Origin: Mycobacteriales bacterium
GTDB taxonomy: Bacteria; Actinomycetota; Actinomycetes; JAFAQI01
Assembly: GCA_035501255.1 (NCBI GenBank)
Contig: DATJWM010000086.1
Coordinates: 8,203 to 72,202, forward strand
Length of the DNA stretch: 64,000 nt
Reading direction: 5' to 3'
Below the pieces are notes generated by a model. That model was not told the DNA's origin and made no database searches. It worked only from the letters and a program-made list of their open reading frames with translations. Shown here piece after piece: positions 2 through 56,214 of this stretch; position 1 is the stretch's first letter; each line of letters begins with the position of its first letter. Position numbers and translations under genes: made by a program.

Positions 2-829
2 CCCCAGACCTACCGCAGGCCGACGCACCTCAATGTCACCGCGTCCTCGATTCCCCGCCGGGTCCTGGCCGCCTACGTCAACGCCGCCCGCCTCGCCGAC
101 CGGAACGACCAGGCCTGCGACCTGCAGTGGCAGACGATCGCCGGAATCGGGTTCATCGAATCCGACCACGCGCGTTCCGGGGGATCCGAGCAGCCACACT
201 GGGACGGCGTCGCGAATCCGCCGATCTACGGGCCTGCGCTCGACGGCGCGCATGGCTGGGCGCGCATCCCGAACACCGACCCCTCGATCGACGGTCCCGG
301 CCGCTGGGAGCGCGCCGTCGGACCGATGCAGTTCATTCCATCGACGTGGAACGCCTACGCCGCCGACGGCAACCATGACGGTGTCGAAAACCCGCAGGAC
401 ATCGACGACGCCACCCTCGCCGCCGCCGACTACCTCTGCGCCACGGGAAGCCACCTCGACCGACCCGCTGCGCTGATCCGGGCCGTTCACGCCTACAACC
501 ACTCCTATACCTACGTCCGCGAGGTCCTGACCGTCGCAGCGCACTACGAGGGCATCAACCCGGCCAAGCTCGGCGTGAACGGGTTGCCGGGCACCGCGAA
601 GCGCCGTGAACTTCGGCTCCGGATCACGATGCCGCCGGCCGACGCCACACCGACCCCGCCCGGACACCGGGGTTCAGGTTCATCGGCGCCGGACCCGACG
701 CCCACCTCGTCTCCGACCCATAGCCCGAAGCCGACGCCCTCCCAGCCACGACCGTCGGCGCCGACCTCGCCGACGACATCGCCATCCCCGACGGCGACCA
801 CGCTGCCCGGCCACGTGCCGGGCCACTAG
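2..829 (+). CDS. Lytic transglycosylase (SLT-like) domain protein, 5'-partial, with Pro/Thr/Ser-rich C-terminal tail
   Basis: Frame 2 is open from the window start. Motifs 'IAGIGFIESDHARSG' and 'RAVGPMQFIPSTWNAYAADGNHDGVENPQDIDDATLAAADYLC' are typical of actinobacterial transglycosylase SLT domains. The C-terminal PT-rich low-complexity tail ends at TAG 827-829. Confidence 0.6.
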   Translation, partial: PQTYRRPTHLNVTASSIPRRVLAAYVNAARLADRNDQACDLQWQTIAGIGFIESDHARSGGSEQPHWDGVANPPIYGPALDGAHGWARIPNTDPSIDGPGRWERAVGPMQFIPSTWNAYAADGNHDGVENPQDIDDATLAAADYLCATGSHLDRPAALIRAVHAYNHSYTYVREVLTVAAHYEGINPAKLGVNGLPGTAKRRELRLRITMPPADATPTPPGHRGSGSSAPDPTPTSSPTHSPKPTPSQPRPSAPTSPTTSPSPTATTLPGHVPGH

Positions 830-831
830 TC

Positions 832-1656
832 CTAGCCGAAGCGCCCGTGGACGTAGTCGGCGGTGCGCGCGTCCTTCGGGTTGTTGAAGATGTCCGTGGT
901 GAAACCGGATTCGACGATCGCGCCGGGAGTGCCCATCTCCGCGAGGAAGAACGCGCATTGCTGGGACACCCGCGCCGCCTGCTGCATGTTGTGGGTGACG
1001 ATCACGATCGTGACGTCATGATGCAGATCCGCGATCGTCTCCTCCACCCGCCGGGTCGAGGTCGGATCGAGCGCCGAACACGGCTCGTCCATCAGCAGCA
1101 CCTCCGGGCGCACCGCAAGGGCTCGGGCGATGCACAACCGCTGCTGCTGGCCTCCGGACAACGCCCCCCCGGCGTCTCCGAGGCGGTCCTTGACCTCACC
1201 CCAGAGACTGGCGCGGCTCAGGCATTCTTCGATCAAGTCTGCGCGTTCGGACTTCGACGGCGACGTGCCGGTCAACTTCAGGCCGGCCAGAACGTTGTCG
1301 CCGATCGACATCGTCGGGAACGGGTTCGGCTTTTGGAAGACCATGCCGATCTTGCGACGGGTCTCGGTGATCCGCTGACCAGGCGCATAGATGTCCACCC
1401 CGTCGAGAAGGACCTCGCCGGCTAGCTGCGCACTCGGTACCGATTCGTGCATCCGGTTGAGGATCCGCAAGAACGTCGACTTACCGCAACCCGAGGGACC
1501 GATCAGCGCGGTCACCGTCTTACCCGGCATCGCGAGGGACACCCGTTCGAGCACCTTGTTCGACCCGAACCAGGCGGAGATTCGCACCGCCTCGATCCCG
1601 CTGCCCTGGTTGGATTCGATGCGGAGCCCGGTGGCGGTCTCGTCAATCACCGACAC
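832..1656 (-). CDS. pstB: Phosphate ABC transporter ATP-binding protein PstB (orphan, PhoT-like)
   Basis: 274 aa with Walker A 'GPSGCGKST', signature 'LSGGQQQRL', Walker B 'LLMDEP' and the PstB-typical C-terminus '[19 protein letters not shown]'. Confidence 0.9.
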
Positions 1657-1871
1657 TGCGACGTCCCCTTCGTGTGAGCCTCGCTGTTGCGACCGCCGAG
1701 TGTGACCACAGCCTCGCGCCGGCTCTTCGATCGTAGAGTCGGAACGGCCCTGTGATGTCGGTTCAAGGCAGGCTGACGCCGACAGGTCATCCAGCGTTCA
1801 TCTCCCGGTCGCTTTGTGGTTGACCAACGCCGCGACCGTGGAGGATCCGACAACCACCAAAAGGATCGAGC

Positions 1872-2798
1872 GTGTCGCGAGACCAGGTGCGTCGCGGCGC
1901 CACGCTGGTCGCCATCCTCGCCGCCGCCGCAGGAATGTCGCTGACCTCGACGGCAACGGCCGCAATCGCCGCGCCGAAGGCGAAGTGCGACCTCGCAGTC
2001 ACGACGCCGTACTCGGCGGATCGACCGCTTCGCCTGCCCCTCGTTCTCGACTCGACCGGCAACGCCTACTCGGGGAGCGCGGTATTTCGCTCGATCACCG
2101 TGTCGGACACCAGACGTTCGAACAAGCGCTGGACGCTCAAGGCGCTCGCCGGCCCGTTGAGCTTGACGCCGGCGCAAGGCACCGCCGTGGGCGGCACGGG
2201 TGACGGCCAGATCAACTCCCAGAACGTCGGCATCTCGGAGCTGACCACCCTGCGCGCATGGCATGGCTTTTCTCTCGCCCATCACAACCTCACCCTGATC
2301 AACCGGACCGCGGCCTCCCCACCTGCGCCGGCGGCGGCGAGAGGAGGCCTCGGACTGGGTGGCTCGAAGGCGCACCCGATCGCGACCGCGCTCCATGGCC
2401 GTGGCTCCGTGCGCATCGGTGGCGTGCTCACGCTCGACGCGCCGACCTCGACAGCGGCCGGAAGCTTCGTCGGCGAGGTGACCTTCACCGTTGGCTGTGG
2501 GCGGGTGGTGGTTCCCGTCAAGCCGCCCAAGCACCATCACCATCACCATCACCATCACCACCACCACCCGCATTCGCCCAGGCCGACGCCGACCCCCTCA
2601 TCGACGGTGAAAGCCACCGGGGTGCCACGCGGGACCACCAACGGAGGCGGCAACGGCGGCTCGGGAGGCGTGATGCCGTTCACCGGCTTCGACCTCGCTG
2701 GATTCGTCGTCGCTGCGATCATCGCCTTGGCGCTCGGAGCGCTGTTGGTGGTGGCCGGTCGACGGCGTTGGTCGCAGCCGTCAGGTCCTGGGACCTGA
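1872..2798 (+). CDS. Secreted protein with 13-His tract, PT-rich linker and C-terminal sorting-signal-like anchor (MPFTG + TM + RRR)
   Basis: N-terminal signal peptide 'LVAILAAAAGMSLTSTATAAIAAPKA'. Run 'KHHHHHHHHHHHHHPH' at 2532-2576. The C-terminus 'GGVMPFTGFDLAGFVVAAIIALALGALLVVAGRRRW' has the tripartite layout of a sortase sorting signal. The internal module 'LTLDAPTSTAAGSFVGEVTFTV' is shared with the 4986-6842 protein. Confidence 0.6.
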   Translation: MSRDQVRRGATLVAILAAAAGMSLTSTATAAIAAPKAKCDLAVTTPYSADRPLRLPLVLDSTGNAYSGSAVFRSITVSDTRRSNKRWTLKALAGPLSLTPAQGTAVGGTGDGQINSQNVGISELTTLRAWHGFSLAHHNLTLINRTAASPPAPAAARGGLGLGGSKAHPIATALHGRGSVRIGGVLTLDAPTSTAAGSFVGEVTFTVGCGRVVVPVKPPKHHHHHHHHHHHHPHSPRPTPTPSSTVKATGVPRGTTNGGGNGGSGGVMPFTGFDLAGFVVAAIIALALGALLVVAGRRRWSQPSGPGT

Positions 2799-3728
2799 CG
2801 CCGCGGACCTCCGCCGCCAGAGATAGGCACCGCCAACCCCGACGAGAACGACCGCAACGATCACGCCCGCAATCGCGCCGGCATCCGAGCCGCCGCCGGA
2901 CGAGGACGCGTTGTCCTGCGACGCCGCGCCGCTCGTCGTGTCCGGGCCGGGAGAGGTCGTGCCTGAACCCGAGGCTTGGCTCGACGCTCCGCTCGACGGC
3001 TGGGAGGACGGGGTGGACGTGGAGGCACCGAGCGCGGCCGCGCGGGCGGCGATGTTCGCGGCACGACCGATCGGAGCGCCGACCGACTTGGCTGCCACAG
3101 GTGAGAGCAGCTGTGGTCGGCCACGTCCCTGCTTGTTCCACTTCGGCAGCGCGGACTCCGGTGACACGGCCCGACCGGCGGTGCAGTTCACCCGCACGTT
3201 TGTGACGCTGTGCCATGTCGTTCCCGTGACGTCGATGAACGAAGCCGCGTAATTCGTCGAGTAACCGGTGTCGACGCTGCTGTAGAGCACACGCAGCTCG
3301 ATGTAGTGGCCCGCCATCGCCGGGTAGTCGTTGAGAAAGTCCGACAGAGCGAGGTCGCGGGAGGTCGCCTGTGCCATCGGCACGGAAGCGTTGGTGTAAA
3401 CGCTCGCTGCGGTCAGCGTGTCACCGCTCCATTGGGCCGCGTCGATCCCGGGTCGAGGCTGGAAGGCGTAGAGCGTTGCCTTGCGCCCCTTTCCATTGAA
3501 CGGCTGCGGCGCGGCAGCGGTGCTCACTGCGCGCCAGACGAACGGCTTGTCGTACACGCTGCCGTGCGTGATCTGCTGACCGTGGCTGTTGCAGAATCCC
3601 ACGTGCCCCTGGGCGTAGGGGTCGCTCGGTACCGGTGCCGAGGCGCGAGCCGGCACGGCCGCGACGGCGAGGGATCCGGCCGCAATCAGCGCGGCGGCTG
3701 TCAGAGTCGAGGTTCGGATCAAGCGCAT
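2781..3728 (-). CDS. Surface-anchored hypothetical protein (signal peptide, Ser-rich linker, C-terminal TM + RRR)
   Basis: 315 aa. N-terminal signal 'LTAAALIAAGSLAVAAVPARA'. Ser/Gly-rich stretch, then 'AIAGVIVAVVLVGVGGAYLWRRRS' at the C-terminus. No recognisable catalytic motif. Confidence 0.5.
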   Translation of the reverse strand: MRLIRTSTLTAAALIAAGSLAVAAVPARASAPVPSDPYAQGHVGFCNSHGQQITHGSVYDKPFVWRAVSTAAAPQPFNGKGRKATLYAFQPRPGIDAAQWSGDTLTAASVYTNASVPMAQATSRDLALSDFLNDYPAMAGHYIELRVLYSSVDTGYSTNYAASFIDVTGTTWHSVTNVRVNCTAGRAVSPESALPKWNKQGRGRPQLLSPVAAKSVGAPIGRAANIAARAAALGASTSTPSSQPSSGASSQASGSGTTSPGPDTTSGAASQDNASSSGGGSDAGAIAGVIVAVVLVGVGGAYLWRRRSAASGPRT

Positions 3729-3746
3729 GCGGTGTGCCTACCCTTT

Positions 3747-4871
3747 TCAGGTTGTTCCTGCCGAAGCCGGTCCGGTCGTGACCCGGGTCCCCCGCCGGAC
3801 ATTGCGCCTCCGTCGCACCGCAAAGACGGCGGCAGCAACGACGACGAGGATGAGCGCGAGCAGGATCCAGGGGATCGCGAGAAACGTTGCGCTCGCGGAC
3901 GCCGGCTCGGCGCCAGGGTCGACATCGCCCTCAGGGATGAGCGGAGTGAGAACGACGTGCGAGTGGTCGAAGATCGCGGGAGTGACGTCCTGCGCGTGCA
4001 CGGTGATCGACGCGGAATTGCCGGGCAGGAGCGCCGGGACGTTGCTGGCCGCAACCTTGACCGTCGAGCCGATCCAGCTGCTGACCGTCACCAGCTGGCG
4101 CGCACCCAGGTTGACGTTGCCGGTGTTAACCACCCGGTAACTGATCGTGGCGCTCCCTTTCCCGATCGGGTCGAGTGTTGCCGAATACGAGGTGTGCAGG
4201 CCTTCGACCTGAAGTTGTGGGTGCACCGGCCCGGACACCCGGATAGCGACCGGGACGGCCACCCGCTGCTCGAGCTTCGGGTTGACCTTCAGTCCTTTCC
4301 GGGTCTTCACCGCGGCGCTCAGCGAGGAGATGATCCCTGCCGTGTGGTCGCCCGGCGTCGCGTGGCGCGGGACATGCACCTGGACCGCCACGATCGCGCG
4401 GGATCGCGCCGGCACCCGAAGCACATGTCCGTGGTGCGGAAGACCGAGCGTGATCCATGCCCCCGCGTCGCGCGGGGTAGCCGCCTGCGGCTGAAGCCCG
4501 AGCTGTCCGTTCGCAGCGTTCGTCGCATCCCGTGCGTACAGCGCGAGCGTCAGAGGTTTCTTGGAAAAGTTCTCGATCCCGACATGGTCGTGAACGACCG
4601 CTCCAGGACTCACGAACCACTTGAAGTCCGGCCGCCCGTCGATCTTGTGCGCGTTGGCTGGCCCGATGCCCCACGCCAAACTCTTCGGCGACGGCGCGTT
4701 GTGGGTCGGCTCGTTGGCCGCGGGAACCGTGGCCGAGCCTCGGTCGAGCCAGTGCGACGGGCCGACGGTCGTGGCGATGGCGATGGCGAGGACGAGGACA
4801 AGCGCGCGGCAGATCCGATTCGCGGCCCTGCGGGCGAAGCGGTCGCGCGGGGTGGCCACACCGCTAGCCAA
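3747..4871 (-). CDS. Cell-surface protein with N-terminal signal/TM and C-terminal TM + RRRR tail (possibly DUF916/CscA-like, uncertain)
   Basis: 374 aa. N-terminal hydrophobic 'ALVLVLAIAIATTV'. C-terminus 'FLAIPWILLALILVVVAAAVFAVRRRRNV'. The central beta-rich region carries no enzymatic motifs. Confidence 0.45.
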   Translation of the reverse strand: MASGVATPRDRFARRAANRICRALVLVLAIAIATTVGPSHWLDRGSATVPAANEPTHNAPSPKSLAWGIGPANAHKIDGRPDFKWFVSPGAVVHDHVGIENFSKKPLTLALYARDATNAANGQLGLQPQAATPRDAGAWITLGLPHHGHVLRVPARSRAIVAVQVHVPRHATPGDHTAGIISSLSAAVKTRKGLKVNPKLEQRVAVPVAIRVSGPVHPQLQVEGLHTSYSATLDPIGKGSATISYRVVNTGNVNLGARQLVTVSSWIGSTVKVAASNVPALLPGNSASITVHAQDVTPAIFDHSHVVLTPLIPEGDVDPGAEPASASATFLAIPWILLALILVVVAAAVFAVRRRRNVRRGTRVTTGPASAGTT

Positions 4872-4985
4872 GCCCGGGCGAGTGAACGCCCGTAAATCCG
4901 AGGATGAACAAGAAGCAAAGAGGTCCGGGCGGGCGCTCCACGCGCCCGCCCGGACCCTTGATCCTTCACGAACCTCCAGGGCCGG

Positions 4986-6842
4986 TTAGACCAGGCTTCC
5001 CACGAGGGTGAAGGTGATGGTGCCGGTGAACAAACCCGCCTCGGTGGAGCTCGGGGCGTTGAGGGTCAGCAGACCGGTCAGACCGATCGAACCAATCCCC
5101 TGCTGGGCCTGCGCGATGTCGTGCGCGCCGTTGCCCAGACCCGCAGTGCCGAGGTCCGTCGGCGCGACGGCCGGGTAGGCAGCCGGGTTGGCGAACGTCG
5201 TGAAGTTCGACGCGAGCCCGTTGAACCCGTTGCCACTGACCGGAACCTCGGTCAACCCGGTGAGACCGACGTCCTCACCACTGATCTGCGAACCGGCGTT
5301 GGACCCACCGTCACTCAGCGTCGACGCCGCCGCCTGGGCGGTCCAGGGCAGGTCACCGGCTCGGGTGTCGGTGACGTAGATGTCCTGCGTCGGGTCCGTC
5401 GCGCTTCCGCCGAAGGTAGCGCTCGCCGAATACACCGTGCCCGTGCTGTCCAGGTGCATGGTGCCCAGGTTCAGCGGGTTCTGGTTGGAGTACGGCGTGG
5501 TGATGCTCAGCACACCCTGCGGGATCGTGGCCTCGATGTTCTGCACGTCGGTGCACTGTGAACCGGTCGAGGCGCACGGACCGTTCGGGTTCGCCGACTG
5601 GCTGAACGTCGACGCCGCCGAGGTGGACGTTGCGCAAACCGTCGCGTCGGACGGGCTGAACACCGCGGTGATCGAGTGCGAGCCCGGCGAGTTGAACGTG
5701 TTGGTCGCGTCGAACTCGTTCGGCGTGCCCGGCTTCGGGCTAATCGGTCCTGCAACCTTCGTGGTGTCGTCGTAGAAGTTGACGGTACCGGTGCAGGCCG
5801 AAGCCGACCCGTAGTCCACCGTTGCCACGTAGCTGTTCTGGTCGCCGGCGTACTGACCCGGTGTCACCGACAGGTCGGTGCTCGTGGCCGGCGCCGGAGG
5901 CGCAACCGAGAACGGCACTGTTGCCGAGGTGGATGTCGTCAGGCTGGTGCCGATGTAGGGAGCGAACTGTGCCGTGAAGCTGTGCGTCGACGGGTTCGCA
6001 ACGCTGTCAGTCACGCTCGCCGTGTACGGGCCGGACCCGGACACGAGCTGGGTGGTCCCCACCTGGGTGGCGCCGTCGAAGAACGTCACCGTCCCGATCG
6101 GCCCGGTGTAGCTGCTCGGGACCGCGCTCGCGGCACTCACCGACGCGTTCAGCGTGACGCTCTCCGGGTTGTTCGAGGAGGTGTCCGGGCTGGTCGGCGA
6201 GGTGTGCAGCGTCGTGGTGGTCGTGTCCGTGGCGTCGGGGTAGGTGCCCGAAGCCGGGTACACGACCTGCCAGGTGTCCGCGCTCGGGTTGACCTGGATG
6301 TCGAGCGTGTCGTACTGCGTGGTGTCCGGCGGCTGGCCGGTTCCCGAGGTGTAGATCCGCAGCTGGTAGAGGTTCTGGTAGCCGCTGGTGCTCAGGTTGT
6401 TCGGGTACTCCCCGATGTAGTCGTTCATCGACAGGTCGGTCGACCCGCCGGTGACGAAAGGCAGCCCCGGAGTGCTGACGGCACTCGGCGTTCCGCTCGG
6501 AACCGGGCTGTAGGTCCCGGCGCTGAGCACGTCACTGCTCCAGGTCTGCGGGTTGCTTCCGGGCACCGGCGTAGCGACGTACAGCTGCGCCTTGGAGTCG
6601 CCCGAGCGACCGGCGTGGGACGCGATCGCGTAAGCGGCCAACGGGTGACCATCCAGGCTGCCGCCGGTAATCGGGGCACCCGAGGAGTTGAGCAGCGTGA
6701 TTGTTCCGATGGAGTTCGGGTCCGGTTCCCACCCGACGCTTGTCGTGGTGGCGGACGCGACGCCGCTCGCCGCGAGCACTAGCCCGCTCGCGAGCGCCAG
6801 GGATCCTGCCCCGGTAAGCGCACGTTTGAAGTTGGTTCGCAC
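4986..6842 (-). CDS. Large secreted Thr/Ser-rich repeat protein; N-terminal domain paralogous to the 16461-17585 product; C-terminal module shared with the 1872-2798 product
   Basis: 618 aa with signal peptide 'LALASGLVLAASGVASA'. N-terminus 'TTSVGWEPDPNSIGTITLLNSSGAPITGG...AYAIASHAGRSGD..QLY' matches 'TTPGWEPDPNAIGSITLYDSSGSPITSG...AYAVATHAGRSGD' in the 16461 gene. The C-terminus ends '...LTLNAPSSTEAGLFTGTITFTLVGSLV'. Confidence 0.6.
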   Translation of the reverse strand: MRTNFKRALTGAGSLALASGLVLAASGVASATTTSVGWEPDPNSIGTITLLNSSGAPITGGSLDGHPLAAYAIASHAGRSGDSKAQLYVATPVPGSNPQTWSSDVLSAGTYSPVPSGTPSAVSTPGLPFVTGGSTDLSMNDYIGEYPNNLSTSGYQNLYQLRIYTSGTGQPPDTTQYDTLDIQVNPSADTWQVVYPASGTYPDATDTTTTTLHTSPTSPDTSSNNPESVTLNASVSAASAVPSSYTGPIGTVTFFDGATQVGTTQLVSGSGPYTASVTDSVANPSTHSFTAQFAPYIGTSLTTSTSATVPFSVAPPAPATSTDLSVTPGQYAGDQNSYVATVDYGSASACTGTVNFYDDTTKVAGPISPKPGTPNEFDATNTFNSPGSHSITAVFSPSDATVCATSTSAASTFSQSANPNGPCASTGSQCTDVQNIEATIPQGVLSITTPYSNQNPLNLGTMHLDSTGTVYSASATFGGSATDPTQDIYVTDTRAGDLPWTAQAAASTLSDGGSNAGSQISGEDVGLTGLTEVPVSGNGFNGLASNFTTFANPAAYPAVAPTDLGTAGLGNGAHDIAQAQQGIGSIGLTGLLTLNAPSSTEAGLFTGTITFTLVGSLV

Positions 6843-7012
6843 TACAGTTTTCTCCTTTAGGAAGTGTCCAGATGCGAAAAGTCGGTCATCATGGACACGG
6901 GCTGGGCCCGTGCCCGGTCCAACGAGACCCTCTCCCCGGCGCCCGGTCCGAAGCCAAAGGCGCCGGGGAGAAGGGTTTTCTGCGGTTATTGCAACTTCAC
7001 CGCCAGGGTGAC

Positions 7013-8290
7013 TCAGCCGGATGAAACGTCGCCGAGGTCCTGGTAGTTCGGGGTGAAGTAGGCCGCGCTGATGTCCGGAGCGTTCGACGCCCGAGCGATC
7101 CAGCTGGTGCTGCCCTTCAGCAGGTCGTTCACGAAGTTCTTCGTGCCGCCTGGCTGGGAGGGCTTACAGCCGGAGTAGCTCGACGACGCACAAGTTCCCG
7201 AACCCGGCGTCAGGCCGAGGTCGTAGTCACGGGCGATGAAGTACAGCCCGCGGGTCGAGTCGTACACCGAGTCGCTGTGTGAAGTGTCGCTGTCGCTGGC
7301 CGGCTTCTGGTCAGCGGACGGGCAGTTCGGCGTCATGTCACCGGTGGTGCAGCCGCTGATCAGCGAGATGTTGAAGTTGGATGCGGGCTCCTGGCTGTTG
7401 CCGTAGTAGCCGCTCTGGATGAGGTTGATCTTGCCGACCGAGAACGGCTCGATCGCGTCCGCCGGAGTCGCCGCCAGCGTGACGCCGGTCGGGTCGTGCT
7501 CCTCACTGATCCGGATGCAAGTGCTCGAACTGATCGTCGAGTCGGACACACCGATGTCGGACTCGAAGAAGTTGCGAGTGCCCGAGCCGGACTGCGGGAT
7601 CACCGGAATGATGTGGTCGGTCGAGGCGCCGGAAGGCGCGCCCGGAACCTCAGCCCACTCGATTCCCTGGCTGCCGTCGCAGTGGCTGTAGATGTAGGCG
7701 AGTTGCGTGCCGTCAAGCGGGAAGCCGTTGAAGCTCACGCTCGACTTCGCGATCTCCAGGTTGTCGGTGGCGAACTGGAACACGTGCAGACCACCGCAGT
7801 CCGTGATACCGGCGCACGACGTCTGCTCCGAGCCCTTCGGCAACCGGGACGCACGGGAGAAGGTGAGCGACCCGGTTGGCAACCCTTGGTAGCCGCCGCC
7901 ACCGACCGAGTCCGCGATCAGCGCGCTGATACCCGCACCCGAGCCATCCGGACGCTCGACCGGCTTCGTGCCGGCCCGCAGCACCGCCGACGTTGTGCCG
8001 TTGCCGTAAAGCAACGCACCGGTGGAGTCGTAGAGCGCCCGGCCGTTGCCGTCACCGGTCGCGAAGTAGTTGTAGACGCTGTTCGTCTTGCCCGTGTTGT
8101 ACGCCGGGTCACCCGCGACGTCACCACTGAACAGGAAGTCCGCAGCGTTCTGAACCGTGTCAGAGCCGACAGCGACCGCGTCGCCCGGACGTGCTTGCGG
8201 ATCGGCCCACGCCGGCTGCATTGCAAACAGCAATGCGGCGGTGGTCCCCGCGGCACCGAGCGCCAGAGTCGCCCTTGCCTTTCTCGACAT
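7013..8290 (-). CDS. Secreted PstS-like (periplasmic binding protein superfamily) domain protein, divergent
   Basis: 425 aa with signal 'LALGAAGTTAALLFAMQPAWA'. 'AVGSDTVQNAADFLF' and 'IIPVIPQSGSGTRNFFESDIG' resemble the 'GSGSTW...' and 'IPIVPIVHSEGSGTSYQF' segments of the PstS at 12274-13956. Assigned by resemblance only. Confidence 0.4.
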   Translation of the reverse strand: MSRKARATLALGAAGTTAALLFAMQPAWADPQARPGDAVAVGSDTVQNAADFLFSGDVAGDPAYNTGKTNSVYNYFATGDGNGRALYDSTGALLYGNGTTSAVLRAGTKPVERPDGSGAGISALIADSVGGGGYQGLPTGSLTFSRASRLPKGSEQTSCAGITDCGGLHVFQFATDNLEIAKSSVSFNGFPLDGTQLAYIYSHCDGSQGIEWAEVPGAPSGASTDHIIPVIPQSGSGTRNFFESDIGVSDSTISSSTCIRISEEHDPTGVTLAATPADAIEPFSVGKINLIQSGYYGNSQEPASNFNISLISGCTTGDMTPNCPSADQKPASDSDTSHSDSVYDSTRGLYFIARDYDLGLTPGSGTCASSSYSGCKPSQPGGTKNFVNDLLKGSTSWIARASNAPDISAAYFTPNYQDLGDVSSG

Positions 8291-8460
8291 TCGCCCTCCT
8301 TGGAGGCAGTGCGGAGCCTTTCTCCGCCGGGGCGACCCTAGAGGCCCAATCGGGCTATCAAGCCGCTAGATCCTGAACAGCAGACGAACGATCACCACAA
8401 TCGCGCGATAGGCCTGCTATCGCGCGAGGCGGATGGGCTCCGTGTGACCACGGAGCGTCA

Positions 8461-9441
8461 TCACAGAAGGTTGGGGAGTAGCCGCGCTGCGGTCTCGGTC
8501 ACGACCCAGAGGATCGCGAGCATCGCCGGAACGCCGACCAGCCAGACCTGGCGGCCGCCCCATCGTCGATGCGCCCACACGAAGCCGATCCCGACGACGA
8601 CCAGCAGCTCCAACCAGAGCACCAGCGGGGTGAGCGCGGTGCGATCGATTGCCATCGCCACCTGGTTGGAGGGCTGAACCGTCGGTCCGCCTCCCGGCGA
8701 AGGTTGCGCCTTGCCGACCAGGTTGGCGTCGACGTAGACAACCTGAGAGGGCGCCCACCCACTGCGCCATCCGCTGCCCTCTGCGCTGACCAGAGTGAGG
8801 CGACCCTGGCCGGACGAGAGCAGCGGTGGTACCGGATCGCCAGGCCGTCGTACGTCGGTGACGCGATAGGTGAATGTGCCCTGACCGGTCACTGCCGTGA
8901 TGCCATCACCCGGTTGCAGCCGGGTGATGTGGGCAAACGGTGCACCAAAGGTGGCGCTCTTGCCAAAGACCACGCTCACGCCTGCCTGGCCGGGCAGAAC
9001 GGTGTCCACCCGGTGTCCCGGCCCCTTCTGCAAGTCGGTAGAGGTCGTGCCCTCCACCACAACGGCGCGGTTGATGCCGGCCTGGGAGGCGCTGATGAGA
9101 GCCACCGGCGCACCGTCGGTGATTTGCCCCCCCAGCGGCGCAACCTCGTTGGCCAGATCCGCCCGCAGGCTCGCGTACATCTGCGCCTGTGTGTGCCTCT
9201 CCTGAAAGCCGCTCAGCACCAACGCATACAGCACCACCCAAAACGCGAGTGCACACAACAGCGCGAGAACCACCAGGACCGTTCCGCCGGGTCCGGTGGA
9301 CGGCGGTCCGCCGGCCGCCCACACCGCGCGCATCCGTGCTCCGGACCGCTGGCGCCAACCCGCGAACCCTCCGGCCTCCGCCGGAGCTGACGCCGCGCCC
9401 GGATCGGAAGTGGGCGCCTTGTCCGCCACGCGGGTGCTCAT
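8461..9441 (-). CDS. Sortase-fold membrane protein (class E-like) lacking the catalytic cysteine (TLxTC replaced by 'TLVSA')
   Basis: 326 aa with an N-terminal TM helix. Sortase hallmarks 'GHRVDT', 'TFGAPFAHITRLQPGDGITAVTGQGTFTYRVTDV' (GAPF..L..GD.I......TY.V) and 'LTLVSAEG' at the TLxTC position. The DNA reads 'gtc agc gca', so the loss is not a single-base artefact. The only Cys lies in the TM helix. Two extra C-terminal TM helices. Confidence 0.6.
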   Translation of the reverse strand: MSTRVADKAPTSDPGAASAPAEAGGFAGWRQRSGARMRAVWAAGGPPSTGPGGTVLVVLALLCALAFWVVLYALVLSGFQERHTQAQMYASLRADLANEVAPLGGQITDGAPVALISASQAGINRAVVVEGTTSTDLQKGPGHRVDTVLPGQAGVSVVFGKSATFGAPFAHITRLQPGDGITAVTGQGTFTYRVTDVRRPGDPVPPLLSSGQGRLTLVSAEGSGWRSGWAPSQVVYVDANLVGKAQPSPGGGPTVQPSNQVAMAIDRTALTPLVLWLELLVVVGIGFVWAHRRWGGRQVWLVGVPAMLAILWVVTETAARLLPNLL

Positions 9442-9448
9442 CGGCCGA

Positions 9449-12325
9449 TCACGTCTTCGCGCCCGTTCGGCGCCAACCCCGGACCAACCGGGGTCCGATC
9501 ACCGCGATTGCGGTGACGACCGCCGCCAACAAGACGATCGGGATCGCGATACCCAACGGACCGACCGGCGTCGCGGGAGTCGCCACGGCGGCCGGGCTGG
9601 CACTCTCGCTCGGGGACGAAGCGGGAGACGACGCGGAGGTGGACGAACTCGGTTGTGGCGACGTTCCTCCGTCGCTGTGGGTCGAAGTCGGGCCGGGCGT
9701 TCGGGAGACCGGTGGCGTCGAGCGCTGTGACGACGGCTCGGTCTGGGTCGGTGTGGGGGTCGGATCAGGGCAACCCGACCACTTCGACCTCGTCTGCCCG
9801 GAGCCGTTGATGTTCGGGATTTCGCACTGCTGGTCCGAGACGGCCTGCGCTGCCCGAGCCGTATACGCCGACTCCGCGCCAAGGCCGTTCGCCGCGGTCA
9901 TCGGCAGGTAGCCCGGCGGAAGGTCGCCGAAGGAGTTGCCGGGCGTCTGCCCCGCCTTCGCCGCGAACGACAGCTGCTGGGCAAACGCGCTCGCCGCCTC
10001 AGACGACAACCCCGCACTCGGCACGCTCTCCGACACAAGCATCGTGCCCGGATATGCATGAGCAGTGCTGGAGCCGCTCCGCAGCTTGCCGTAGTCCATC
10101 GACCACGCGTTCATCGACGGATCGGGCTTCAGCGCACTCACTGCGCTGCGCATCGTCTTGGTTGATGCCCGCACGAACGTGCCATCCGCAGGGCCGTGGA
10201 TCTTCGACGTGGGTGACACCGACGACCGCGTCTCCAGCAGCGCGGTGTCGAGGTCGTAGCGTTTGGCCTCCGACAACGACACCACGCCGAGCATGAACCG
10301 CACGCCGGGCTGCTGACGAGGGTCGGCGCTGATCTTGTCGGCCGCCGCCACCGTGGCGATCGTGCAGTTGGTCGTCGAGTTCGGCAGTCCGAACTCCATG
10401 TCATAGGCGGCCGTGGACAGGCTCAGCACCGGGGCGGCAACCAGCGGGAGATACGGCACCTGGAACTGGGTCTGGGCGAAGCATCCTGACTTGTCGGCGT
10501 TGTAGGACTGGGTGGGGACGAAGGTGTCCTTGAGCGGCCAGAAGTCGACCGGAAGCTTCATCCCCTTGTATGCGGGATTGACCACCATCCCCCACGGATC
10601 GGGCTTGCCGTTGATGAACGCCCGGGCGGCCGGGTCAGCCTCGATGTAGGAGGTCAGGGCGCGCATGATGTCGGAGTTCGAGGACAACGCCATCAACTCG
10701 GCCCGGGCCTCGTAGTAGATCAGGTAACCCGGCTGCGGGCTCGCCTTCGGGATGTCGGGGTTAAGCGCTTGGAATTCCGGGTCATCGGTGATGTTCAGCG
10801 GGTTGTCGGCCATCGGACCGGGTGTCGTACCGCCGTCCGGAGAGCCGTCGTCCTGAGCAACCTCGTCGAGCACCGGGTAGGACTCGGTGAGTAACTTTGC
10901 GAGCAGCCTCGGGTCCAGCCTGACATCGAAGACCTCGTTATGGTCGCCGTCGTCGACCAGCGTGGCGATGGCAAACCCGTTGACCGCGACCGGTGCATTG
11001 ACGACGGGATGCCCCGACTTGCCCTCGGGTTTGGAAGGGTAGGTGTCATACGCAGCCTGAATGTTGCCTTCGGACAGGCTGTTGACGGAGGCCGGCTCCG
11101 CCTGCGGGACCTGTGTGAACGGCGTACGCTTCGGATCCGTGCAGAACGCCGGCGCCCACTGTTGGGCGGCCTCGGTCATCAGCTCCGAGCCGTACACGAA
11201 GACCGCGGGCTTGCTGCCGACCACCGAGCAGTAGTCCGCCGGCTTGGCAAAACTCAGCGGCACGGTGATGCGATTGCGCCAGTTCGACGCCGACCACCAC
11301 AAGGCGCCGGTGACGGACTCGAGCGCCATGTTTCCCGGATCACCATCAAGCTCGCGGGTTGCGTTCTCGGCCTGCCCCGACTGGTCGTCGGAGTAGGTGC
11401 AGTTGGCAATGTCCTGCGCACTGAGATCACCCCTGGCCTGCTCGTCACAACTCATCCCGTCGATCGGGATGACGACGAGCGAGCAGGGCACCGACGACGA
11501 ACAGCCGAGGGTCGCGTTGGTCTCGTCGCTCCAGAGAACGAACTTTGCGAGCCCGCTCCCATCGCTCCCGGTCGTGCCAAAAGTGGTGTTGTCCGGAAAG
11601 TCCGCCGTGAACGTACCCTGCTCGGGGGCCAGCTTGCTGCACGCCACCGTGGGACCGCTGTAGTAGGTCTTGCCATTGGCGCCGTCGAGAGGCTGGAAGT
11701 AGTCCGCCTCGTTGAGCGCGTACTTGCTGCAACCAGTGGGCAACGGCTTTGGAACGTTGTTGAAGGCGGGGAGATTTCCCGCGTAGCGATCCATTCGCCA
11801 CGGTGGGTAGTCAGTACCGGGCGCGGTCGCGTTGCGCTCACTCAGGTACTGCGTCCAGCAAGTGTTGGGGCTCAACCGCTGCGCAGCGGGCGCCTTGGAC
11901 GAGTCGACACCCCGGCACTCGAGGACCACGACCGGGTACTCCTCGAGGGTCGCCGCGGTCGAGGAGTTCGGGTCAGGATCGACGTAGTTGCTGGGATGCG
12001 CCCCCTTCCACGAAACGTTGATCTCCTGCAAGGTGCGCAGCTGCTTGGTCGCACTGACACTCACGGTCACTTTCCGCTTGTCGACGGTCTTGGTCTTCCC
12101 GTCCGGAAGAACGTCGCTGCGAGTGATCTGCTTACTGACCGTGACCGCGCCGGCGCCCGCAGCGCTCTTGGCCTGAGCCGCTCCCGAGGCGCCCGCGGCG
12201 CCTGCGACCTGCGCCAGGGAGCCGGCCGCGATCAAAGCCGCCGCAGCGATCGCGACCGCCCGACGCCGGCTGCTCACGACGCCGCACCCGGCGGCGGTGC
12301 GCCGGGCTTGGACCAGCGCCGCCAA
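9449..12325 (-). CDS. Large (~945 aa) surface-anchored Cys-containing hypothetical protein; PT/S-rich linker + C-terminal TM + RR tail
   Basis: Longest ORF on the track. The true start is probably the GTG near 12280 ('VSSRRRAVAIAAAALIAAGSLA' signal peptide), immediately after the pstS stop. The C-terminus reads 'PDPTPTPTQTEPSS...PVGPLGIAIPIVLLAAVVTAIAVIGPRLVRGWRR'. No recognised catalytic domain. Confidence 0.55.
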   Translation of the reverse strand: MAALVQARRTAAGCGVVSSRRRAVAIAAAALIAAGSLAQVAGAAGASGAAQAKSAAGAGAVTVSKQITRSDVLPDGKTKTVDKRKVTVSVSATKQLRTLQEINVSWKGAHPSNYVDPDPNSSTAATLEEYPVVVLECRGVDSSKAPAAQRLSPNTCWTQYLSERNATAPGTDYPPWRMDRYAGNLPAFNNVPKPLPTGCSKYALNEADYFQPLDGANGKTYYSGPTVACSKLAPEQGTFTADFPDNTTFGTTGSDGSGLAKFVLWSDETNATLGCSSSVPCSLVVIPIDGMSCDEQARGDLSAQDIANCTYSDDQSGQAENATRELDGDPGNMALESVTGALWWSASNWRNRITVPLSFAKPADYCSVVGSKPAVFVYGSELMTEAAQQWAPAFCTDPKRTPFTQVPQAEPASVNSLSEGNIQAAYDTYPSKPEGKSGHPVVNAPVAVNGFAIATLVDDGDHNEVFDVRLDPRLLAKLLTESYPVLDEVAQDDGSPDGGTTPGPMADNPLNITDDPEFQALNPDIPKASPQPGYLIYYEARAELMALSSNSDIMRALTSYIEADPAARAFINGKPDPWGMVVNPAYKGMKLPVDFWPLKDTFVPTQSYNADKSGCFAQTQFQVPYLPLVAAPVLSLSTAAYDMEFGLPNSTTNCTIATVAAADKISADPRQQPGVRFMLGVVSLSEAKRYDLDTALLETRSSVSPTSKIHGPADGTFVRASTKTMRSAVSALKPDPSMNAWSMDYGKLRSGSSTAHAYPGTMLVSESVPSAGLSSEAASAFAQQLSFAAKAGQTPGNSFGDLPPGYLPMTAANGLGAESAYTARAAQAVSDQQCEIPNINGSGQTRSKWSGCPDPTPTPTQTEPSSQRSTPPVSRTPGPTSTHSDGGTSPQPSSSTSASSPASSPSESASPAAVATPATPVGPLGIAIPIVLLAAVVTAIAVIGPRLVRGWRRTGAKT

Positions 12326-13956
12326 AGTAGCGGCGGAACGATCAGTGCGGCGAGGAACAGACCGACAGCGAGGAGCCCTAACGCCGTGCTGTTGTCCTGA
12401 CCGTCGGCGACCGTCACCGGCTCACCCTCAACGTTGGCGTTCGTGGTCCCCCCGGTCGATCCGACCCGCTGGCCGGTCACCGGATCGACCGGACCCGTGC
12501 TTGCCGATCCCGTCTTGGTCCGCCCGTTGCCGGATCCCGGCGAGGTCGGGCCCGGAGTCCCGCCTCCCTGGTTGGACCCGCCACCACCGTTCTTTTTGCC
12601 GCCGTCACCGCCCTGCGTTTTGCTCTGGTTCTGCTTCACGCTGGTGATCGAGGGGCCGGTCGAATCGTTGGGGGTCGTGCACGGTCCGTGACCCTGCTCA
12701 TCGCACAGCGGAGGCTCGGGGGCGATCTTGGCGAGGTAGTTCTCGGCGGGGTGGTTGGCGACGAAGGTCGGGTTCCCGCACGTGCTCACGTTCAGGTTGT
12801 TGAGCGAGACCTTCGAGTCAGCCTTGTGCAGCAACCCGATCTGCTGGAACCCTGCCTCCACCAGGTTGATCGGCAAGGCGGAGTACCCGAGGCCGCCGAC
12901 CGCGCCTTGGCCCTGGCAGATCGAGGTGTACAGAAAGTCGGCGAGAGTCTGGCGCTTCGGCGACGTCATCGTCCGGTCGCTGCTCGACGTAGGGATGATG
13001 CCGTAGGAGTACGACGAGACGGGATAGGTCCGTTTGTCGTTGTACCCGTATACGTCCTTCAAATTCTCGAGCAGGTAGTTGTTCGAGTGCCGGTTGTAGT
13101 TGATGATCGCTTTCGTCAACGCCACGGCCACGTTGTACTGCGTCGGGAGCGTGTAGTACCCCGCGGTGTTCTCGACCTTGGCGACCGGAATCTTCTTCGC
13201 GATCGCATAGGAATACTCGTCGTAGCCGATCGTCCCCTGCCCGGACGACGATGCGATGTAGTTCATCAACTGGTCCGAGCCGTTCTGAGCAATCTGTCCG
13301 GACTTGCCGCTCGGCCAGTACTCCGTCGGCTTGTCAGCTCCTGCAAAGCCGGTCCACAGGCTCCTGTCCTCCTGGGCGAGATACGCGGAGAACTGGTAGC
13401 TCGTGCCCGATCCCTCCGAATGCACGATCGGCACGATCGGGATCGAGGGGAACTTCCGACCGTTGTTGTCCGCAGAGATGTGGGAGTCGTCCCAGTTCTT
13501 GATCTGCCCGGTGAAGATCTTGGCAAGAGTCGGCCCTGACAACCGGAGGTTGCGCACGAGCTTGCCGGCCACGGTCAGGTGATATGGGAACGAGGTACCA
13601 CCGGCAACCAGTGGTACATAGGCGTATGGTCGCCCGTTGGACGTGTCGGACACGCCGGTCAGCGGGTCGTGACCCTGGAATCCGATGTCGGACACCGCGA
13701 AGTCGACCGCTTTGTTGGCGAAGTCCTGACGGCCCGCCGCCGAGCCGTTCCCGGTGAAGGTCACCCGCAGACCTTGTCCTGACACCTCGCCGATCCAGGC
13801 GTTGACCGCGTTGTAGGCCCAGGTCGAGCCGGAACCGTTGATCTGCGCCGTGCCGGTGGCGTACGACGGCGTCGCGGTCAGTGCGACCAGACCGGACGCG
13901 GCACACAGGGACAAAACCCGCGCCCGGGCGCGGCCGGCGCGGCGGTGTCCGGTCAT
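12274..13956 (-). CDS. pstS: Phosphate-binding protein PstS with Gly-rich C-terminal extension and C-terminal TM anchor
   Basis: Start ATG 13954-13956 overlaps the pstA stop (ATGA). Signal 'VLSLCAASGLVALTATPSYA'. PstS core motifs 'NGSGSTWAYNAVNAW', 'SAAGRQDFANKAVDFAVSD' and 'SEGSGTSYQF'. Then a 'GGDGGKKNGGGGSNQGGG' linker and 'ALGLLAVGLFLAALIVPPLLWRRW' at the C-terminus. The upstream part of ORF 12274-14271 is an unsupported extension. Confidence 0.8.
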   Translation of the reverse strand: MTGHRRAGRARARVLSLCAASGLVALTATPSYATGTAQINGSGSTWAYNAVNAWIGEVSGQGLRVTFTGNGSAAGRQDFANKAVDFAVSDIGFQGHDPLTGVSDTSNGRPYAYVPLVAGGTSFPYHLTVAGKLVRNLRLSGPTLAKIFTGQIKNWDDSHISADNNGRKFPSIPIVPIVHSEGSGTSYQFSAYLAQEDRSLWTGFAGADKPTEYWPSGKSGQIAQNGSDQLMNYIASSSGQGTIGYDEYSYAIAKKIPVAKVENTAGYYTLPTQYNVAVALTKAIINYNRHSNNYLLENLKDVYGYNDKRTYPVSSYSYGIIPTSSSDRTMTSPKRQTLADFLYTSICQGQGAVGGLGYSALPINLVEAGFQQIGLLHKADSKVSLNNLNVSTCGNPTFVANHPAENYLAKIAPEPPLCDEQGHGPCTTPNDSTGPSITSVKQNQSKTQGGDGGKKNGGGGSNQGGGTPGPTSPGSGNGRTKTGSASTGPVDPVTGQRVGSTGGTTNANVEGEPVTVADGQDNSTALGLLAVGLFLAALIVPPLLWRRWSKPGAPPPGAAS

Positions 13957-15059
13957 CGAACGGAGCCCTTCTGACGGGATGCGAGGAAACGAATGAGGAC
14001 GAAAACGACCAGCACGATGATGAGCAGCAGGCTCGCGGCACCGAAGGCGCGGGTGATGAAGTTGGGCTCGCCGCTGCGCACGCCCGAGTAGACGAACAGC
14101 GGCAAGGAGTTCATCGGGTTGTTGACCGGGTTCGTGTTGAAGTACGTCGACGCACCTGAGGTGATCAAAACTGGCGCTGTCTCGCCGACGGCCCGAGCGA
14201 ACGCGAGAATCAACGCGGTCGCGAGACCGGCTCCGGCCGTTGGCAGCACCACCCGCCAGACCATCCGCCACTTCGGAGCACCGAGCGCGAGCCCCGCCTC
14301 CCTCAGCCCGCCCGGCACAACCCGAAGCGAAAGCTCAGCCGATCGCGCGATGATCGGCAGCATGGTGATGGTGAGTGCGATCGCGGCGGCGAGTCCGCTC
14401 TTTTGCATCCCCAGGCCGACGATCAGCAGGGTGTAGACGAACAAACCGGCGATCAGGTCAGGAAGGGCGGTCATCGCCTCAACGACGGTTCGCACGGTAC
14501 GCGCGAGCGGGCCACCAACCTCCGTCATGTACACGGCGGTCGCGATTCCGAGCGGAAGTGCGACCGCGGTCGCGATCGCCAGTTCGATCAGGCTGCCGAC
14601 CACCGCGTGCAAGACACCACCGCGAGTCAGCGGATCCGTCGGCTGCACCGCGTTCATGTCCTGGGTGTAGAAGTTCATGTGGTGGAGCGCCGGCCACCCG
14701 CGAACGAACGTGTAGATGATCGTGGTGGCCAGGGCGAAGGCGACGATCCCCGCCCCGGCACAGATGATCGCGCGCATGAGTCGATCCACGACGACCGGGC
14801 GCGGGTGCGACATCGCGGTGACCGCGGTGTACAGCGCGAGGAAGCTGAGATACCAGCACACGATGAAGCCGAGCAGGCCATGTTCCGGAAGGAGCTCGCC
14901 GTAGACGATCCAGACGGCGCCGAGCGATCCGAACAGCGAGCCGAAGAAGGACAGCACGTCATCGGTCGTCCGGACGGCGAGCTCGCGCGGACGGTCCTCG
15001 CCGGCACCATCGGGGAGGTTGCCGGACACGGACGGCATCGGCAGTGACTCGGTCGACAT
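13953..15059 (-). CDS. pstA: Phosphate ABC transporter permease PstA
   Basis: 368 aa with 6 TM helices. ABC permease EAA-like region 'ARAVGETAPVLITSG'. Position after pstC and before pstS. Its stop overlaps the pstS start. Confidence 0.8.
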   Translation of the reverse strand: MSTESLPMPSVSGNLPDGAGEDRPRELAVRTTDDVLSFFGSLFGSLGAVWIVYGELLPEHGLLGFIVCWYLSFLALYTAVTAMSHPRPVVVDRLMRAIICAGAGIVAFALATTIIYTFVRGWPALHHMNFYTQDMNAVQPTDPLTRGGVLHAVVGSLIELAIATAVALPLGIATAVYMTEVGGPLARTVRTVVEAMTALPDLIAGLFVYTLLIVGLGMQKSGLAAAIALTITMLPIIARSAELSLRVVPGGLREAGLALGAPKWRMVWRVVLPTAGAGLATALILAFARAVGETAPVLITSGASTYFNTNPVNNPMNSLPLFVYSGVRSGEPNFITRAFGAASLLLIIVLVVFVLIRFLASRQKGSVR

Positions 15060-16243: not shown

Positions 16244-16460
16244 TGGGTGGCGGCCAAGGTTAACGATCGGCGATTCATCGATGAAGCACAGATGACCATC
16301 TGAGGGAATCTGGTGCAGACCGCTCGAAACTGACCGTCAACCGCGCATGCTGTTGCGTCGCGGGGTGCGTTCCGAACCGGCCGGACGGACGGCCGGAGTC
16401 GCAACGCGCACCTGACGCATCGCAACCACCCAACTTTGCAGGCGGATACGGAGGACAGGA

Positions 16461-17585: not shown

Positions 17586-17605
17586 TTCAAGGCTCCGACC
17601 CACGA

Positions 17606-56074: not shown

Positions 56075-56214
56075 CGACCGTCACGCGCCAGCGAGGTGTG
56101 TCACACTCGCTGTCAACCCTGGGTGACATCGGGTTCGCCGAGCACTATCGTTCCCCACCGGAGCCCCAATCGTCGGGTGATCCAGGTCCACCGCCGCATT
56201 CCAGGGGTTGTGAC

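Follow-up and report, generated by a model that had tools for sequence, protein, structure and literature searches.

Published WxL gene clusters always encode a small WxL protein, in which a single domain of ~180 amino acids (aa) follows the signal peptide, together with a large WxL protein and a DUF916 protein, and they usually include a small LPxTG protein as well (PMC9772566, PMC5817068). The WxL domain is described as always C-terminal and as bound non-covalently to the cell wall (PMC9772566, PMC5817068), and more than 91% of the known WxL sequences come from Firmicutes (PMC9772566). Two conserved W-x-L motifs, the distal one lying in YxxxLTWxLxxxP, are among the features that define the family. 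Here we describe a locus of this general kind from an uncultured soil actinobacterium. The 64,000-nucleotide stretch of contig DATJWM010000086.1 from a Mycobacteriales bacterium (hereafter the window; 64 kilobases (kb), GC content 67%) carries a gene for a 308-aa protein, P1, which an initial annotation had characterized by its histidine tract, its MPFTG C-terminus and its proximity to a sortase homolog without cysteine. The main point beyond that annotation is that, as judged by sequence comparison, the N-terminal two thirds of P1 are a WxL-type domain paralogous to one encoded by a neighboring gene. In our interpretation, P1 is the small WxL subunit, in tethered form, of a WxL/Csc-type cell-surface complex in actinobacteria. 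Taken whole, with cleavage of its C-terminal signal by a sortase included, this reading has a probability of about 0.45. Its first part, that P1 belongs to a WxL-type surface complex, is very probable, and the cleavage of the signal in this organism is given a little less than even odds. The features of P1 are as follows, with the ribosome-binding site, the linker and the membrane segment read from the sequence:

1860-1865, plus strand: Shine-Dalgarno (SD)-like AAAGGA, 6 nucleotides ahead of the P1 GTG
1872-2798, plus strand: P1 open reading frame (ORF), 308 aa, GTG start
1872-1970, plus strand: predicted Sec-type signal peptide, residues 1-33, with basic n-region, hydrophobic core and AxA site
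1971-2507, plus strand: probable WxL-type beta-sandwich domain, residues 34-212, ~180 residues, basic, with an isoelectric point (pI) of 10.6
2532-2573, plus strand: histidine tract H12-P-H, encoded by (CACCAT)4(CAC)4 CCG CAT
2574-2672, plus strand: Pro/Thr/Gly-rich linker (stalk), unalignable among orthologs
2673-2687, plus strand: MPFTG pentapeptide, residues 268-272, of the LPXTG class with Met at position 1
2688-2768, plus strand: transmembrane (TM) segment, residues 273-296 (24 residues), followed by RRR, residues 297-299; kept in all six sequences of the P1 subfamily

Residues 41-207 of P1 match the last 170 residues of P4, a 618-aa large WxL-like protein encoded nearby, with 41% identity (E 2e-26). 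A domain profile made from the P1 and P4 copies was searched against 1.84 billion representative proteins and recovered 392 relatives, 272 of them with E<=1e-10. The domain closes the protein in 143 of the best 150 representatives, and Big_3_5 Ig-like domains usually come before it. The P1 domain is not C-terminal, as it ends at about residue 212 of 308, and among these best 150 a stalk and anchor past the domain occur only in P1 and its closest relatives, while one other protein has a 20-residue extension. The consensus of 148 family domains matches Pfam WxL (PF13731) with 26.8 bits (gathering threshold (GA) 25, E 6e-6), covering positions 84-210 of the 214 in the model; individually, 10 of 113 family members give weak matches. 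The proximal motif, W87-T88-L89, is present and invariant in the P1 subfamily, and the distal motif, GEVTFTV, has F-x-V where the WxL family has W-x-L. An AlphaFold2 model of residues 34-220 is an all-beta sandwich with a predicted local distance difference test (pLDDT) score of 93.4 and a predicted template modeling (pTM) score of 0.88, and a search of PDB sequences with the domain profile found nothing. The assignment of P1 to the WxL fold is drawn from sequence profiles and gene context, and should be read as a prediction.

Six sequences form the P1 subfamily, namely the window protein and five representatives (P0007, P0021, P0049, P0051 and P0089) found among the best 150. They are mutual best matches and extend 94-133 residues past the domain. 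Their alignment places one invariant Cys ahead of the first strand and an equally invariant VGC behind the last one. Next come a conserved VVPVKPP, a His or His/Pro-rich stretch, the unalignable linker, the pentapeptide, the TM segment and RRR. Cys39 and Cys209, the only cysteines in P1, correspond to the two invariant positions and bracket the domain. The subfamily is also set apart by charge: the domain pI is 10.0-11.0 in all six P1-type proteins, against a median of 4.28 and a maximum of 8.0 among the 144 remaining domains of the family. Within the window this amounts to a charge reversal between paralogs, the P1 domain (1971-2507) having a pI of 10.6 and the P4 domain (4989-5525) a pI of 4.05. 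A word-index search for full-length P1 homologs found none, its 8000 candidates being mostly low-complexity word matches; a word search with the subfamily profile returned 4 proteins only, and scans of genomes and metagenomes yielded no members beyond the known six. No source gives the orthologs any name other than 'hypothetical protein'.

The genes next to P1 belong to a cluster that was also compared across related loci, which carry L numbers below. In the window its members are:

832-1656, minus strand: pstB, phosphate ABC transporter ATPase, flanking P1
2781-3728, minus strand: P2, secreted, 315 aa, TM-anchored at the C-terminus, conserved member without known domains; 18 nucleotides at its 3' end are shared with the 3' end of P1
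3747-4871, minus strand: P3, WxLIP/DUF916 (WxLIP_PGBD)-like protein with a C-terminal TM anchor; PF06030 match of 25.2 bits
4986-6842, minus strand: P4, 618-aa large WxL-like protein with Big_3_5 Ig-like domains and an acidic C-terminal WxL-type domain (pI 4.05), no anchor
7013-8290, minus strand: P5, secreted binding-protein paralog of PstS/PBP_like_2 type; consensus match of 56.8 bits
8461-9441, minus strand: P6, sortase-fold membrane protein lacking the catalytic cysteine, the 'sortase homolog' of the initial annotation
9449-12325, minus strand: P7, secreted, ~940 aa, TM-anchored at the C-terminus, conserved member without known domains
12274-16243: pstS-like gene and two permease (pstC/pstA-type) genes

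The full order of the cluster is pstB, a small gene, two pstC/pstA-type permeases, the TM-anchored PstS-like protein, P7, the sortase-fold protein, the PBP_like_2 protein, the large WxL-like protein, the WxLIP protein and P2, and this synteny recurs in L004, L008 (from the metagenome-assembled genome (MAG) 'uncultured Actinomycetota MFD05502.bin.1.113'), L009, L011, L013 and L019-L029. The large WxL-like and WxLIP genes lie together in the window, and their order is kept in L004, L008, L009, L011 and L019-L024. The consensus of 11 P3 orthologs scores 40.6 bits against WxLIP_PGBD (GA 27.3). Since a large WxL protein (P4), a WxLIP protein (P3) and the small-WxL architecture of P1 occur together, we conclude that the window probably contains an actinobacterial kit of the WxL/Csc type.

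The closest counterparts of P1 are the small WxL proteins CscB/Swp of Lactobacillales and Listeria (PF13731). P1 resembles them in its signal peptide, its single ~180-residue W-x-L beta-sandwich, the adjoining genes for a large Ig-like WxL protein and a DUF916/WxLIP protein, and a family consensus that passes Pfam WxL. Differences are its host, a member of the Actinomycetota; the F-x-V at the distal motif position; the basic charge of a domain that is acidic in the others; the placement of that domain ahead of a stalk and a membrane or wall anchor and not at the C-terminus; and the absence of a Pfam match to P1 itself.

The cluster sits inside a pst operon, which spans 832-17603 in the window and is also present in L008, L009, L011, L013 and L026-L029, and it contains two extra PstS/PBP_like_2 paralogs, one of them TM-anchored. 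In L029 the cluster adjoins PhoU and a two-component system. The pst embedding and the PhoU context suggest a surface complex that is phosphate-regulated or scavenges phosphate.

Long spurious ORFs are common in high-GC DNA, and three overlapping ORFs of 308-315 aa are found here, so that P1 could be imagined to be a chance frame, with the antisense ORF at 1647-2573 as the real gene or with none. The GC content of P1 by codon position is 0.66/0.61/0.82 (third-position GC, GC3, 0.816), which is the coding signature of the window, and it is unlike that of both the antisense ORF (0.76/0.60/0.66) and the overlapping +2 ORF at 2258-3205 (0.73/0.74/0.65); we therefore reject these two ORFs as spurious. 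The initial annotation had already dismissed the antisense ORF, in which the histidine tract reads as (MV)n, and its GC3 of 0.66 against 0.82 bears this out. Together with the SD sequence and start codon, the domain family of 392 representatives, the syntenic orthologs and the confident AlphaFold2 model, this has already refuted the notion that P1 is not a gene, and we consider its probability negligible. Three further, independent metagenome assemblies (L001, L002 and L015) encode an identical P1 protein with the histidine tract included, which shows that the tract did not arise during assembly.

P1-type genes always lie between an SLT_2 lytic transglycosylase gene and P2 and are convergent with the cluster. 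The SLT_2 gene, which is beside an NlpC/P60 gene, is directly upstream of the P1-type gene and has the same direction (window 326-829; L003, L004, L007, L008 and L009); only in the window is pstB inserted on the opposite strand between the SLT_2 gene and P1. P1 (plus strand) and P2 (minus strand) are convergent, and no terminator-like structure separates their 3' ends, which overlap at 2781-2798. A promoter and terminator scan of 1600-3000 found neither.

P1 ends in the tripartite arrangement of an LPXTG-type signal, with a pentapeptide, a hydrophobic segment and a positive tail, and the MPFTG, the hydrophobic helix and the RRR are all present in the architecture that the initial annotation had given. 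Substrates with signals of this type are cut between Thr and Gly and become linked to peptidoglycan. No other ORF in the six frames of the window combines x[PA]x[TSA]G with a TM segment and a basic C-terminus. P269, T271 and G272 fit the Pro/Ala at position 2, Thr at position 4 and Gly at position 5 of such signals; position 1 is Met, not Leu, and is S, T, L and L in orthologs. The subfamily pentapeptides are MPFTG in the window, SPFTG in P0007, TAFTG, LPFTG, LRLTG and, in P0089, LPALAG, in which the motif is lost. The motif thus reads x[PA]FTG in four of six sequences and LRLTG in one and is destroyed in one, while all six retain the TM segment and the basic tail. The initial annotation had named a conserved membrane tail without a conserved motif as the outcome that would tell against a sorting signal, and this is what is seen in part. 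The contexts include MPFTGFD, SPFTGLD, TAFTGFD and LPFTGAP, and [FLV]-[DE] directly follows four of the five intact motifs. The loss in P0089 appears to be recent, since its domain is 62% identical to that of P0049, which bears LPFTG.

Canonical signals of this class occur in related clusters. In L017 (47-2476) a gene for a 633-aa large WxL-like protein is followed 3 nucleotides later by one for a separate 174-aa protein with a signal peptide and an end reading GGKLPFTG-TM-RSKRR. The signal of this protein aligns with that of P1, there is no significant similarity outside the signal, and the protein weakly matches NF053819, the EF2685/EF0750 small LPXTG family of enterococcal WxL clusters. In L014, a Mycobacteriales MAG, the P7 homolog (868-aa open frame, 5005-7611) ends in LPLTG-TM-RYAGRVRRR; P7 in the window has a TM anchor only, so the presence of an LPXTG signal on this protein depends on the lineage. 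Because of the LPFTG in L017 and the LPLTG in L014, LPxTG-class signals appear to be part of these actinobacterial clusters. By its sequence the L017 gene pair is the unfused counterpart of the P1 architecture, and P1 looks like a small-WxL domain fused to an LPxTG-class signal. The same arrangement can be compared with CscD, the small LPxTG protein of the described clusters (NF053819, EF2685/EF0750), in that each cluster has one anchored component of the LPXTG class, which in L017 is a separate protein; P1 instead carries the signal as a fusion to its WxL-type domain, with Met at the start of the motif.

The best hidden Markov model (HMM) matches of the tail, although weak, are to actinobacterial LAXTG/LAVTG signal models. 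Substrates of class E sortases carry LAXTG (NF058583, NF058582; SrtE1, PMC5148588), and P1 shares with them the tripartite signal and a high-GC actinobacterial host, with Ala at position 2 in the ortholog bearing TAFTG. It differs from them in scores far under the cut-offs, in M, S or T at position 1 in three of six sequences, and in that no catalytic class E sortase was seen. Functional signals with a residue other than Leu at position 1 are known, as the SrtB of Clostridioides difficile recognizes (S/P)PXTG. The likeness of P1 to these lies in its non-Leu position 1 and in the SPFTG of P0007, whereas the lineage and sortase class differ and no matching sortase was identified for P1. Other NCBIfam LPXTG models gave no match to the tail. 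PEP-CTERM, GlyGly-CTERM and PGF-CTERM-type signals were considered and rejected, as their motifs are absent and the best HMM matches are of the LAXTG class. A literature search on MPXTG, MPFTG, LPFTG and SPFTG motifs returned nothing relevant.

The initial annotation had placed the P1 motif next to the sortase homolog P6 and so implied that the two form a pair. P6 is not adjacent to P1 but 5.66 kb away, on the opposite strand and with four genes between; it is nonetheless part of the same conserved gene cluster. It has the full sortase beta-barrel fold, with 42.6 bits against Pfam Sortase and 64 bits against the NCBIfam class E sortase model (cut-off 160), and has TLVSAEG in place of TLxTC. 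The description of P6 as cysteine-less holds for the catalytic residue, and one Cys is found in the N-terminal membrane helix. In 55 of 55 aligned relatives A, S, V, L or T stands where TLxTC has its Cys, giving the motif TLV[TAS][ASVL], and none of 88 motif windows of the P6 family located by regular expression has the motif Cys. The catalytic-position His (His143) is kept in 51 of the 55, and the family has a conserved extra C-terminal TM helix pair ending in LLPNL. It comprises at least 120 clusters at 90% identity, the best 120 of which (P0151-P0270) are all at least 49% identical to the window protein. Public records label these relatives 'class E sortase' or 'sortase A' and assign them to Mycobacteriales, Jatrophihabitans and Frankiaceae MAGs. 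A literature search on pseudo-sortases found nothing relevant.

Because the catalytic Cys is absent, P6 cannot act as the transpeptidase for MPFTG. Six loci (L011, L013 and L026-L029) have P6 in the same type of operon with no P1-type gene or xPxTG tail within the locus DNA, which in L011 stops at a contig edge just past P2. P6 is therefore not specifically co-inherited with MPFTG; the implied pairing is unsupported, and we reject an obligatory one. A weaker relationship could be envisaged, in which P6 is a pseudo-enzyme scaffold that has kept the sortase groove and the xPFTG motif is a non-covalent ligand, so that the peptide GGVMPFTGFDLA would sit in the groove and P1 would be captured into a membrane complex. 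The retention of His143 and of the extra helix pair would fit such a scaffold, as would the strong conservation of P6 (67-70% identity between the same genomes in which P1 shows 37-45%) and a motif in which F3 and [FL]D are conserved and position 1 is variable, unlike classical sortase recognition. However, the pseudo-sortase family is large, the six loci show no P1-type gene or xPxTG tail in the DNA covered, and the motif is lost in the P1 ortholog of L008, which adjoins the homolog. We consider this explanation quite improbable. Slightly more so is its fullest form, in which the sortase-fold protein would be a receptor for xPFTG[FL]D as an uncleaved ligand, an ancestral sortase-substrate pair having become a non-covalent module that organizes a WxL-type, phosphate-scavenging complex. 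If true, it would mean that a sortase-substrate pair was turned into an assembly module inside a pst operon.

A more serious competitor concerns the fate of the signal. The C-terminus of P1 may not be processed at all, MPFTG being a decaying relic of LPFTG and P1 being anchored as a type-I membrane protein simply through its TM segment and RRR. The membrane segment and basic tail are, as noted, the part of the signal that every ortholog keeps, and the motifs stand 0-2 substitutions away from LPFTG at differing positions (M1, S1, T1/A2, R2/L3, L4/A5), a scatter that looks like erosion and not like a new specificity. Four other cluster proteins (P2, P3, P7 and the PstS-like protein) have a C-terminal TM segment with an RR anchor and no motif, the one gene of the sortase family within reach encodes a catalytically dead protein, and the sorting-signal HMM scores fall under the cut-offs. 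On the other side, at 42-53% domain identity the pentapeptide and the following [FL]-D show more conservation than the TM segment, and much more than the linker, which points to some selection on the motif. The pentapeptide residues that sortases depend on most, P, T and G, are all present in P1, and the related clusters described above contain canonical LPxTG signals. We regard an unprocessed relic as possible, though on balance doubtful.

Several points weigh against the interpretation of P1 as a tethered, sortase-cleaved WxL subunit. P1 alone has no Pfam match at E<=0.1, and its WxL assignment depends on a family consensus barely above threshold. The subfamily consists of six sequences, all metagenomic, which makes the conservation statistics thin. 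P1 is 37-45% identical between genomes in which P2-P7 are 54-78% identical, and this fast evolution could reflect relaxed constraint. The sorting-signal-like character proposed for the C-terminus holds for the architecture, which five orthologs have inherited, but not for the signal models: the tail scores 21-22 bits against LAXTG_small_WW (NF058583; cut-off 65) and 14-18 bits against Microco_LAVTG (NF058582; cut-off 27). The motif varies, with M, S, T or L at position 1, one R at position 2 and one loss of both T and G. No catalytic or second sortase was found in the 64-kb window or in any compared locus. Finally, the docking of P1 to P4, the disulfide and the role of the stalk, all part of the mechanism proposed below, are predictions from sequence.

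The initial annotation had reported an uninterrupted run of 13 histidines. The tract is instead H12 (residues 221-232) followed by Pro-His, which amounts to 13 His in 14 residues, and the (CAC CAT)n coding claimed for it on the plus strand describes the four hexanucleotide repeats and not the remainder, the DNA being (CACCAT)4(CAC)4. The PT-rich linker that it had noted is present, and tract and linker together make a cationic His/Pro/Thr stalk of ~55 residues. Poly-His metal-binding proteins are known, for example Hpn of Helicobacter, and the long homo-His run of P1 invites the comparison. P1 might accordingly be a surface binder or store of Ni, Zn or Cu, the rest of the protein serving as a scaffold for its display. 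Beyond the density of His itself, enrichment at the same position, right after the conserved KPP, occurs in three orthologs (H8 in P0007, HHHEHHHKHHHKHH in P0089 and a His-Pro pattern in P0051) and might be taken to favor this. Against it, the length and composition of the tract are not conserved, P0021 and P0049 having only 2-3 scattered His, and the tract is encoded by an expansion-prone hexanucleotide microsatellite. The cluster has no metal transporter or regulator and is tied to phosphate uptake instead. P1 thus differs from Hpn-type proteins in being extracytoplasmic and in carrying, within a linker, a tract of unconserved length that has no metal-related gene context. Metal handling is therefore unlikely to be its main role. 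The tract is most simply seen as a cationic, expandable part of the stalk, for which metal binding is possible.

Under the interpretation that we favor, P1 as a tethered small WxL subunit, the protein would be exported by the Sec pathway, with its signal peptide predicted to be cleaved at AIA/AP, and the domain would then be stapled by a C39-C209 disulfide, which we infer because both Cys are invariant in the subfamily. The stalk, with the His tract as its cationic and potentially metal-binding part, would hold the domain off the membrane. The basic domain could act there as a fixed docking partner, complementary in charge, for the acidic and anchorless P4, for anionic wall polymers, or for both. 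MPFTG probably descends from LPFTG and appears to be weakly constrained. Cleavage of the signal would most likely still be carried out by a catalytic sortase of the class E type with its gene outside the window, P1 thereby being attached covalently to the wall, and where the motif has been lost the same segment would serve as a plain type-I membrane anchor.

In terms of the described systems, P1 would work like a small WxL protein (CscB/Swp) joined with a CscD-like small LPxTG component. As judged from its sequence, it falls outside strict WxL membership by the location of its domain, which is not C-terminal, and passes Pfam only as a family consensus; it also falls outside strict LPXTG membership at position 1 and by its HMM scores. 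Overall, P1 represents an unusual variant of a surface-protein kit that is known in lactic acid bacteria, and it does not amount to a system of a new kind.

One further protein of the window is recorded here for its unusual composition. The plus-strand gene at 56098-57108 encodes 336 aa with a signal resembling those of twin-arginine translocation (DRRALIRG), two IPT/TIG-like repeats and a (PT)9 linker. Its C-terminal tail of ~45 residues consists almost entirely of Cys and Gly (GCGCGGCGGCGGCGCGGCGGCGFGCGG...) and ends in PSGNAKK.

The WxL kit of large WxL, DUF916/WxLIP and small WxL proteins, regarded as a specialty of Firmicutes, would with this locus extend to a soil actinobacterial lineage. 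A tethered basic subunit and an acidic, anchorless partner encoded side by side would provide a natural test of how WxL complexes hold together, and the P1 orthologs appear to show a sorting signal at several stages of erosion. Of wider interest may be the large, mis-annotated family of 'class E sortases' that lack the catalytic Cys and are co-operonic with pst genes.

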